DNA from: a virus
Lineage: Duplodnaviria; Heunggongvirae; Uroviricota; Caudoviricetes
Strand: one strand, 5' to 3'
IMG/VR virus record: IMGVR_UViG_2859821903_000004
Location: 1-14,159 of that record
Length of the DNA stretch: 14,159 nt
In this document: positions 5,232 to 6,634 of the stretch, piece by piece
Numbering within the stretch: position 1 is the first letter of the stretch
How the letters are laid out: each line of letters opens with the position of its first letter
The notes under the pieces: generated by a model
What the model was told of the DNA's origin: nothing
The model's input: only the letters and a program-made list of their open reading frames with translations
The model's database searches: none
Translations under genes and position numbers: made by a program

Positions 5232-6634
5232 CAGAAATCCTCCGTCTGTGCGTAGGGTTTACGTGCCGGACCACCAAGTCTCAGACGTCTGGCAGCATCC
5301 TCTGCGCTGACATCAGTCACTGAACCGTTATCCATCAGGGCGTATGCTGTTCCTGTTGCTCCCTCCCTGTTCAGACGGAGAATCAGCTCCATAAGCTGAG
5401 AGTCTGCGTTACGGTTGTAGACAGCATCCCGGTACAACCCAATTCACACATCGCAATCCTGTTCAATCTGCCCGGTGTCGCGACTGTCACTTGGTGTGGG
5501 GCGTTTATCTGCCCTGTCCTCGAGTTTTCGGTTAAGTTGCGTCAGAAGTAAAACCACGCAGTCCAGCTCTTTAGCGAGATTTTTTAAGCCCGTTGTGATA
5601 TCCCCGAAAGCAATATCACGACGCTCCGCGGCTTCCGCCTTCATCAGCGTCAGGTAATCGATCGCCACAAGGCCAACAACACCACGCTGACGCTTAACCT
5701 TCCGGCATTCAGCGATCACATGGGCCAGCGTTACCCCTGGTGTGCTGTCAATCATCAGGTTTGATTCTGCCAGTTCTGCGGCTTTCGCCATCGCCCGCGC
5801 CATATCCGAGTCATCACTGGCACCGACATAAAAAATTTCAGAATTTACCCTCGCCTCCTGCGCAACCATGCGCTCAACCAGGCTGCGATCTGTCATTTCC
5901 AGGGTGAATACCAGTGTGGGCAGACGATGATTCAGAGCAAAATGCGTCACAATCCTGTTCAGCGAGGCGCTTTTACCCATTTTCGGCCTTGCACCAATCA
6001 CTACCAGCGAACCACGTAGCACATGTTTGGGGGCCATAAGCCGATCCAGAAAGCTAATCCCCAGCGTCAGACCCGCTGCGTTCTCCGGGCTGGAAAAGCG
6101 ACGCTCAAGATCATCAATCCAGTCGTTAACCACATCACTTACCGGGCGCAGACCGCCTGTTTTTCCTGTTCTGGCATACTCTGCCACCGTGCCAATGACC
6201 TGTTGAACTGCGCCAAGTCGTTCTGTCGCACTCGTGTCTGTCGGCTGATTCATGATCCCGATGCACGCATGTAATTTTTCCACCGCGTACCGCTGGATGG
6301 ATTTTTCCCGCACAATCCCGGCGTAGTGAACCATCGCCGATAGCGTGGCACTCCTGCTGATTTCAGCAAGGTACGCAAAGCCACCAGTCTCAGCATCCAG
6401 TTTTTTCGCCTCGATCACGTTCGCAAGGCTGAGCAGGTCCGTAGGCTTTCCGGCACGGAAAAGTCCGCGAATTTCACGGAAAATAACCCTGTGCGCCGCA
6501 ACGTAAAACGACTCCGGTTTCAGCATCGAATACACCAGCCCCGCACGCTCAGTGTCGGTGTTTACCATCAGGCACCCCAGCACTGCCTGTTCGGCATCGA
6601 CCCGGTATGGCACCGGAAAGGTGTTATCTGTCAT
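5231..6634 (-). pseudogene. DnaB-family replicative DNA helicase (phage-encoded), interrupted by an in-frame TGA
   Basis: Walker A (VVIGARPKMGKS), Walker B (LVAIDYLTLM) and the DnaB C-terminal motif (LTQLNRKLEDRADKRPTPSDSRDTGQIEQDCD). ORFs 5444..6661 and 5231..5437 are in the same frame, separated only by TGA at 5444-5446, and the downstream part continues the DnaB C-terminus (...IGLYRDAVY...). The likely start is ATG 6632-6634, overlapping the initiator stop, with AAAGAGG upstream. Confidence 0.8.

Follow-up and report, generated by a model that had tools for sequence, protein, structure and literature searches.

A premature TGA codon interrupts a DnaB-family helicase gene in a lambdoid prophage remnant

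Genetic context of the helicase gene

We analyzed a stretch of 14,159 nucleotides (IMG/VR record IMGVR_UViG_2859821903_000004), hereafter the window. It is identical to a part of GCA_002950115.1 / CP026839.1, a chromosome of 4.27 Mb. The window begins with the gene for the T3SS effector ipaHa (1-1763, + strand). This gene carries a C4 run at 480-483 where intact EIEC copies have C5, and is split into an LRR ORF (1-564) and an NEL ORF (711-1763). A lambdoid prophage remnant is flanked and interrupted by IS elements (IS600, IS1 and others of the IS3 family). The + strand carries an ALIL pseudoknot at 2635-2751 (Rfam RF01497, 116 bits), where two transposase ORFs of the IS3 family meet (2354-2680 and 2677-3567); we take this pseudoknot to be the programmed -1 frameshift signal of the element.

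The early region of the remnant is encoded on the minus strand. It comprises, in order, a cro-like gene (7875-8102), YdaT (7469-7891), a replication initiator (6624-7378), a DnaB-family helicase (5231-6634), a 53-aa ORF, DUF1627 and DUF977, with a divergent cI-like repressor gene at 8179-8586. The initiator gene and the start of the helicase gene share 11 nt, and the start of the 53-aa ORF overlaps the helicase stop (TGATG). The arrangement is that of a P22-type replication module, in which an initiator overlaps a DnaB-like helicase downstream of a cI/cro switch. The features relevant to the helicase and its neighbors are the following.

5231..6634, minus strand: DnaB-family (SF4) replicative helicase gene of the lambdoid prophage remnant, now a pseudogene; assigned from Pfam, structure matches and annotated orthologues
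5447..6634, minus strand: part that is still translated, giving a 396-aa product; contains the N-terminal domain, Walker A (GARPKMGKS), Walker B (IDYLTLM), QLNR and IEQDCD
5444..5446, minus strand: premature TGA at codon 397 (W397*); TGG in relatives
5234..5443, minus strand: 70 codons stranded beyond the TGA; include the beta-hairpin LNREG, with the R423 codon AGG at 5368..5366
6624..7378, minus strand: replication initiator (HTH_36 / DnaD_N-like), frameshifted; A7 at 7172-7178, A8 in intact relatives
5071..5231, minus strand: small ORF (53 aa in relatives), frameshifted here; one base missing in a G run at ~5178-5181

Two further RNA features are found on the + strand at the Rfam gathering level, isrK at 10191-10267 (64.7 bits) and the C4 antisense RNA at 10292-10379 (78.6 bits). 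Both lie inside the 5' part of an ORF called Rha/Ash (10140-10979). The pair looks like surviving antirepressor-control RNAs of the P1/P7 or Gifsy type.

The helicase frame is interrupted by a single TGA

The helicase frame is 1404 nt long. Its 468 codons include the TGA at 5233..5231 with which it ends. The start was set to the ATG at 6634 (MTDNTF...), as done by the NCBI pipeline for the intact orthologues, which are 467 aa long and annotated as 'replicative DNA helicase'. Translation of the minus strand from 6670 to 5225 gives one frame with a sole internal stop, which lies between ...SRDTGQIEQDCDV and IGLYRDAVYNRN... The coding strand at this site reads gat gtg TGA att ggg ttg tac cgg. A preliminary description of this DNA had reported a helicase frame broken only by this TGA; our retranslation reproduces its coordinates, codon count and flanking peptide, and finds no other in-frame stop.

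The product encoded in the window contains both domains of a DnaB-family (SF4) helicase, the DnaB N-terminal domain (PF00772, E 6e-24) and DnaB_C (PF03796, E 1e-54). In a search against solved structures, E. coli DnaB is the best match (E 1.4e-72). G220 and K221 of the Walker A motif GARPKMGKS and D326 of the Walker B motif IDYLTLM are invariant in our alignment of the family (A1), and both motifs are located upstream of the TGA. The 70 codons that follow the stop match the intact orthologue in the related locus L001 throughout. Judged by this alignment, the locus is a broken helicase gene and not a chance pair of ORFs, since homology to the orthologue continues in frame past a stop that occupies one of its sense codons.

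The stop codon is derived from a tryptophan codon

The helicase gene is carried by nine of the 5,426 complete E. coli genomes, at 99.2-99.7% nucleotide identity. Several of these nine strains have ipaH/osp invasion plasmids, which marks them as enteroinvasive E. coli. Together with ipaHa and the IS content of the window, such relatives point to a Shigella/EIEC-type chromosome.

The preliminary description had proposed a comparison of the interrupted codon in homologous helicases, and the answer is uniform among close relatives. Codon 397 is TGG (Trp) in all four of the orthologous loci that were aligned, which are near-identical and come from enteroinvasive E. coli. Within the 90%-identity protein cluster, each of the 14 members read has Trp at the position of the stop (DCDVWIGLYRD). 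The residue is kept in more distant phage proteins, namely gp15 of Pectobacterium phage ZF40 (62% identity) and the homologues of Escherichia phage PA21 (46%) and Vibrio phage 1.265.O (43%), and is replaced by Ile in P22 gp12 and E. coli DnaB. The altered base is at window position 5444. The coding strand has A here and G in the relatives, corresponding to T and C on the + strand. On this comparison TGG is the ancestral codon and the premature TGA arose from it by a single G>A transition, because the close relatives that were read all have TGG and the cluster and phage homologues have Trp.

The phage relatives came from a protein-level search; a megablast of the helicase gene against 50,697 phage records returned no match at the nucleotide level. 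An exact-pattern scan of the GTDB species representatives, with N at the variable base, gave no match, probably because a single species genome stands for Shigella and E. coli in this collection.

Only five differences separate the helicase gene from its counterpart in L001: Q33L, S195F, two synonymous changes and W397*. Four of them, S195F, the two synonymous sites and W397* (window positions 6051, 5675, 5489 and 5444), differ from all four relatives. These lineage-specific substitutions are all C:G>T:A, a sample too small to speak of a mutational bias. Across the 210 nt beyond the TGA there is no nucleotide difference from L001. The nonsense event thus looks recent, as the sequence downstream of it has remained unchanged.

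The lesion is reproduced in independent sequence data

A trivial explanation for the TGA would be an error of sequencing or assembly that conceals a true TGG codon. Small indel discrepancies of assembly or strain do occur in this region, as illustrated by the G run at ~5178-5181, which differs between the window and an independent contig. However, the change at codon 397 is a substitution and not a homopolymer indel. Moreover, a Logan contig from the public ENA run ERR5984612 encodes an identical 396-aa truncated protein, and the contig is present in at least five samples. This contig (L006, 4,154 bp) matches the window from 8780 to 4628 with the exception of two sites, a single base of a T run at 8660 and a G of the G run at ~5180. 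Since it differs at two unrelated sites, L006 comes from independent data. We consider an error at codon 397 extremely improbable and reject the artefact explanation, given that the TGA recurs in the independent ERR5984612 assembly. This agrees with the preliminary description, which had taken the change for a real substitution.

The comparison also serves as a check of assembly quality. While the TGA substitution and the frameshift of the initiator are reproduced independently, the nearby G-run indel is not. L006 has one extra G in this run and an intact 53-aa ORF, and the frameshift of that ORF in the window may reflect either a fault of the assembly or a peculiarity of this strain.

The truncation removes the arginine finger

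The preliminary description had put the stop after the IEQD motif and ahead of the C-terminal domain. This placement needs correction. In the intact orthologue, DnaB_C spans residues 188-431 (profile positions 1-243 of 255), and the TGA falls within this RecA-like domain, directly after motif H4 (IEQDxD). The window product ends at profile position 207 of 255. With the standard bacterial code, translation stops after residue 396 of 467, which removes 71 residues.

The intact orthologue aligns over its full length with the DnaB structures of E. coli, V. cholerae and G. stearothermophilus (E 1e-72 to 1e-62). In these alignments, R423 of the LNREG motif corresponds to R442 of EcDnaB (GKQRNG), R439 of VcDnaB and R420 of BstDnaB. 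The residue is invariant in alignment A1, where it matches the Arg of KNRFG in P22 gp12. According to the literature, K437/R439 of VcDnaB and K418/R420 of BstDnaB constitute a trans-acting arginine finger, the finger-bearing beta-hairpin completes the ATP site of the neighboring subunit, and KNRFG is described as piston and finger.

The R423 codon (5368..5366) is located 26 codons past the premature TGA. It is present in the DNA but absent from the translated product. By descent, as judged from the alignments, the helicase DNA is a member of the family, while the protein it encodes is predicted to be incomplete. As the 396-aa product lacks the arginine finger as well as the last strands of the RecA-like core, it should be inactive as a ring ATPase or helicase.

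Readthrough would not rescue the replication module

The preliminary description had allowed for low-level UGA readthrough as a source of some full-length protein. In such a leaky pseudogene, near-cognate Trp-tRNA(Trp) would read the UGA at a low rate and regenerate the wild-type 467-aa helicase, so that some function is kept. The idea has a physical basis. tRNA-Trp is the natural misreader of UGA, and in K-12 reporters readthrough is ~2% at 37 C and 4% at 25 C, reflecting the competition between Trp-tRNA(Trp) and RF2 (PMC10570021). The helicase stop is followed by A, and the UGA-A context shows relatively weak RF2 binding (PMC5373646). The 70 downstream codons are still intact.

These reporter values probably overestimate the readthrough to be expected here, because the RF2 variant of K-12 is unusually poor at termination, while non-K-12 RF2 is far more efficient at UGAA (PMC5373646). 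Codon 246 of prfB is where the RF2 variants of K-12 and B differ. The stop is also limited to one lineage and not conserved. A hexameric helicase needs six competent subunits; with a few per cent of full-length protein, there would be almost no all-wild-type rings if truncated subunits co-assemble. Finally, the upstream initiator is frameshifted, so the module would be dead in any case, and a prophage remnant has no apparent need to replicate.

An RNA hairpin is predicted 3' of the UGA (window 5392-5443, minus strand). It pairs GGUUGUA with UACAACC at -23.5 kcal/mol, and the 73-nt segment that includes it has a z-score of -2.2 relative to shuffled sequences. Its position just downstream of the UGA speaks for the leaky reading. 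However, the relatives that bear TGG have an identical hairpin sequence, so it cannot have arisen as a recoding signal and is probably incidental to the stop.

Taken together, readthrough is physically possible and would restore the original Trp, but it would not rescue the module, since the initiator is defective as well and the analysis turned up no signal for recoding. We regard it as very unlikely that the leaky stop maintains function. Equally doubtful is the milder version, a conditional pseudogene whose UGA-A at a former Trp codon yields small amounts of wild-type helicase. If this were true, the output would rise at low temperature or with high levels of cAMP or tRNA-Trp.

A different possibility is that the UGA is put to use, either through programmed recoding as selenocysteine or another reassigned amino acid, or because the truncated helicase is selected for a new role such as dominant-negative superinfection exclusion. 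UGA is the Sec codon and a hairpin follows it, and truncated subunits of a ring ATPase could in principle poison hexamers. However, the homologues align Trp or Ile with the UGA, not Cys or Sec, and the UGA is not conserved among them. As for a signal, Rfam gave no match to SECIS or any other recoding element at the gathering threshold. TGA also terminates eight of the 14 ORFs of the window as an ordinary stop, including the helicase frame itself at its own end. The allele is rare, as the exact 396-aa protein is found on at least four contigs compared with a cluster of 79 members, and it is surrounded by further lesions that are plainly disruptive. On these grounds selenocysteine insertion and other forms of recoding were rejected, and the probability that the UGA is recoded or the truncated protein selected is close to negligible.

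The surrounding module is decaying

The TGA is not the only lesion of the replication module. The initiator gene has A7 at 7172-7178 in place of A8, a 1-nt deletion that puts it out of frame after approximately codon 66, with about 108 more codons before the shifted frame closes. As the same A8>A7 change is present in the independent contig L006, this frameshift is probably real.

A separate event is found in E. coli RMDEC465 (locus L004, 603-1940). Here the same helicase gene carries a different stop, a CAG>TAG change that gives Q366* within LLLTQLNR, and a frameshift affects DUF1627 next to it. The existence of this second nonsense mutation indicates, at the level of sequence, that the replication module decays in parallel in different strains and has been inactivated more than once. 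The preliminary description had read the TGA as a sign of real decay of the replication module, and the initiator frameshift in the independent contig and Q366* in RMDEC465 bear this out.

Discussion

We conclude that the TGA is very probably a recent, lineage-specific nonsense mutation (TGG>TGA at codon 397) that reflects neutral decay of the helicase gene in a defective prophage. The proposed course of events is simple. A single G>A change on the coding strand (C>T at 5444 on the + strand) would have turned the TGG of Trp397 into TGA. The resulting 396-aa product would retain the N-terminal domain, Walker A, Walker B and H4, and would lose the last strands of the RecA-like core together with the R423 finger. 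Lack of R423 is expected to leave the ATP site of the neighboring subunit incomplete, so that the protein could not function as a ring ATPase or unwind DNA.

The genomic setting appears to be that of a defective lambdoid prophage with a Rac/P22-like early region, located next to ipaHa, cut by IS elements and deprived of an intact initiator frame. In such a remnant there would be no selection for phage replication, and a mutation of the helicase would be neutral. Shigella genomes are rich in prophage- and IS-associated pseudogenes of this kind. The case described here is ordinary pseudogenisation, of a type already well known from IS-rich Shigella/EIEC genomes.

The practical consequence is one of annotation, with little import beyond it: the entry for this locus should read helicase pseudogene (internal stop), in a defective prophage. 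At the same time, it offers a clean and datable example of neutral decay, with a lone transition and nothing changed downstream. The helicase TGA may also serve as a lineage marker for this Shigella/EIEC clone.

Comparison with known systems

The closest architectural parallel to the early region is the P22-type module, which combines the initiator gp18 with the DnaB-like helicase gp12. Both have, in the same order, a cI-like and a cro-like gene, a gene at the position of cII/YdaT, an initiator and an overlapping helicase, and the order of initiator and helicase is shared by ZF40, PA21 and P22. P22 gp12 has the same two-domain DnaB architecture and is 30% identical to the prophage helicase over 91% of its length. 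The finger hairpin is conserved between the two, as KNRFG in gp12 and LNREG in the prophage gene. Unlike the P22 module, the prophage has a helicase truncated at residue 396 and a frameshifted initiator. At the level of the protein, the closest phage relative is gp15 of Pectobacterium phage ZF40 (62-64% identity) and not P22 gp12.

The bacterial DnaB proteins of E. coli, V. cholerae and G. stearothermophilus match along the entire length, with an E-value of 1e-72 for E. coli DnaB. In contrast to the dnaB gene of the host, the gene described here is a prophage paralogue, the translated product of which is devoid of the finger and the last 71 residues.

The best counterparts of the locus as a whole are the Shigella/EIEC pseudogenes located in defective prophages and ipaH islands. 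What the region has in common with them is a nonsense point mutation, homopolymer frameshifts, insertions of IS600, IS1 and IS3-family elements, and an adjoining ipaHa. We find no notable difference from these pseudogenes: the helicase gene is a typical example, and in a sister strain the same gene has been inactivated independently.
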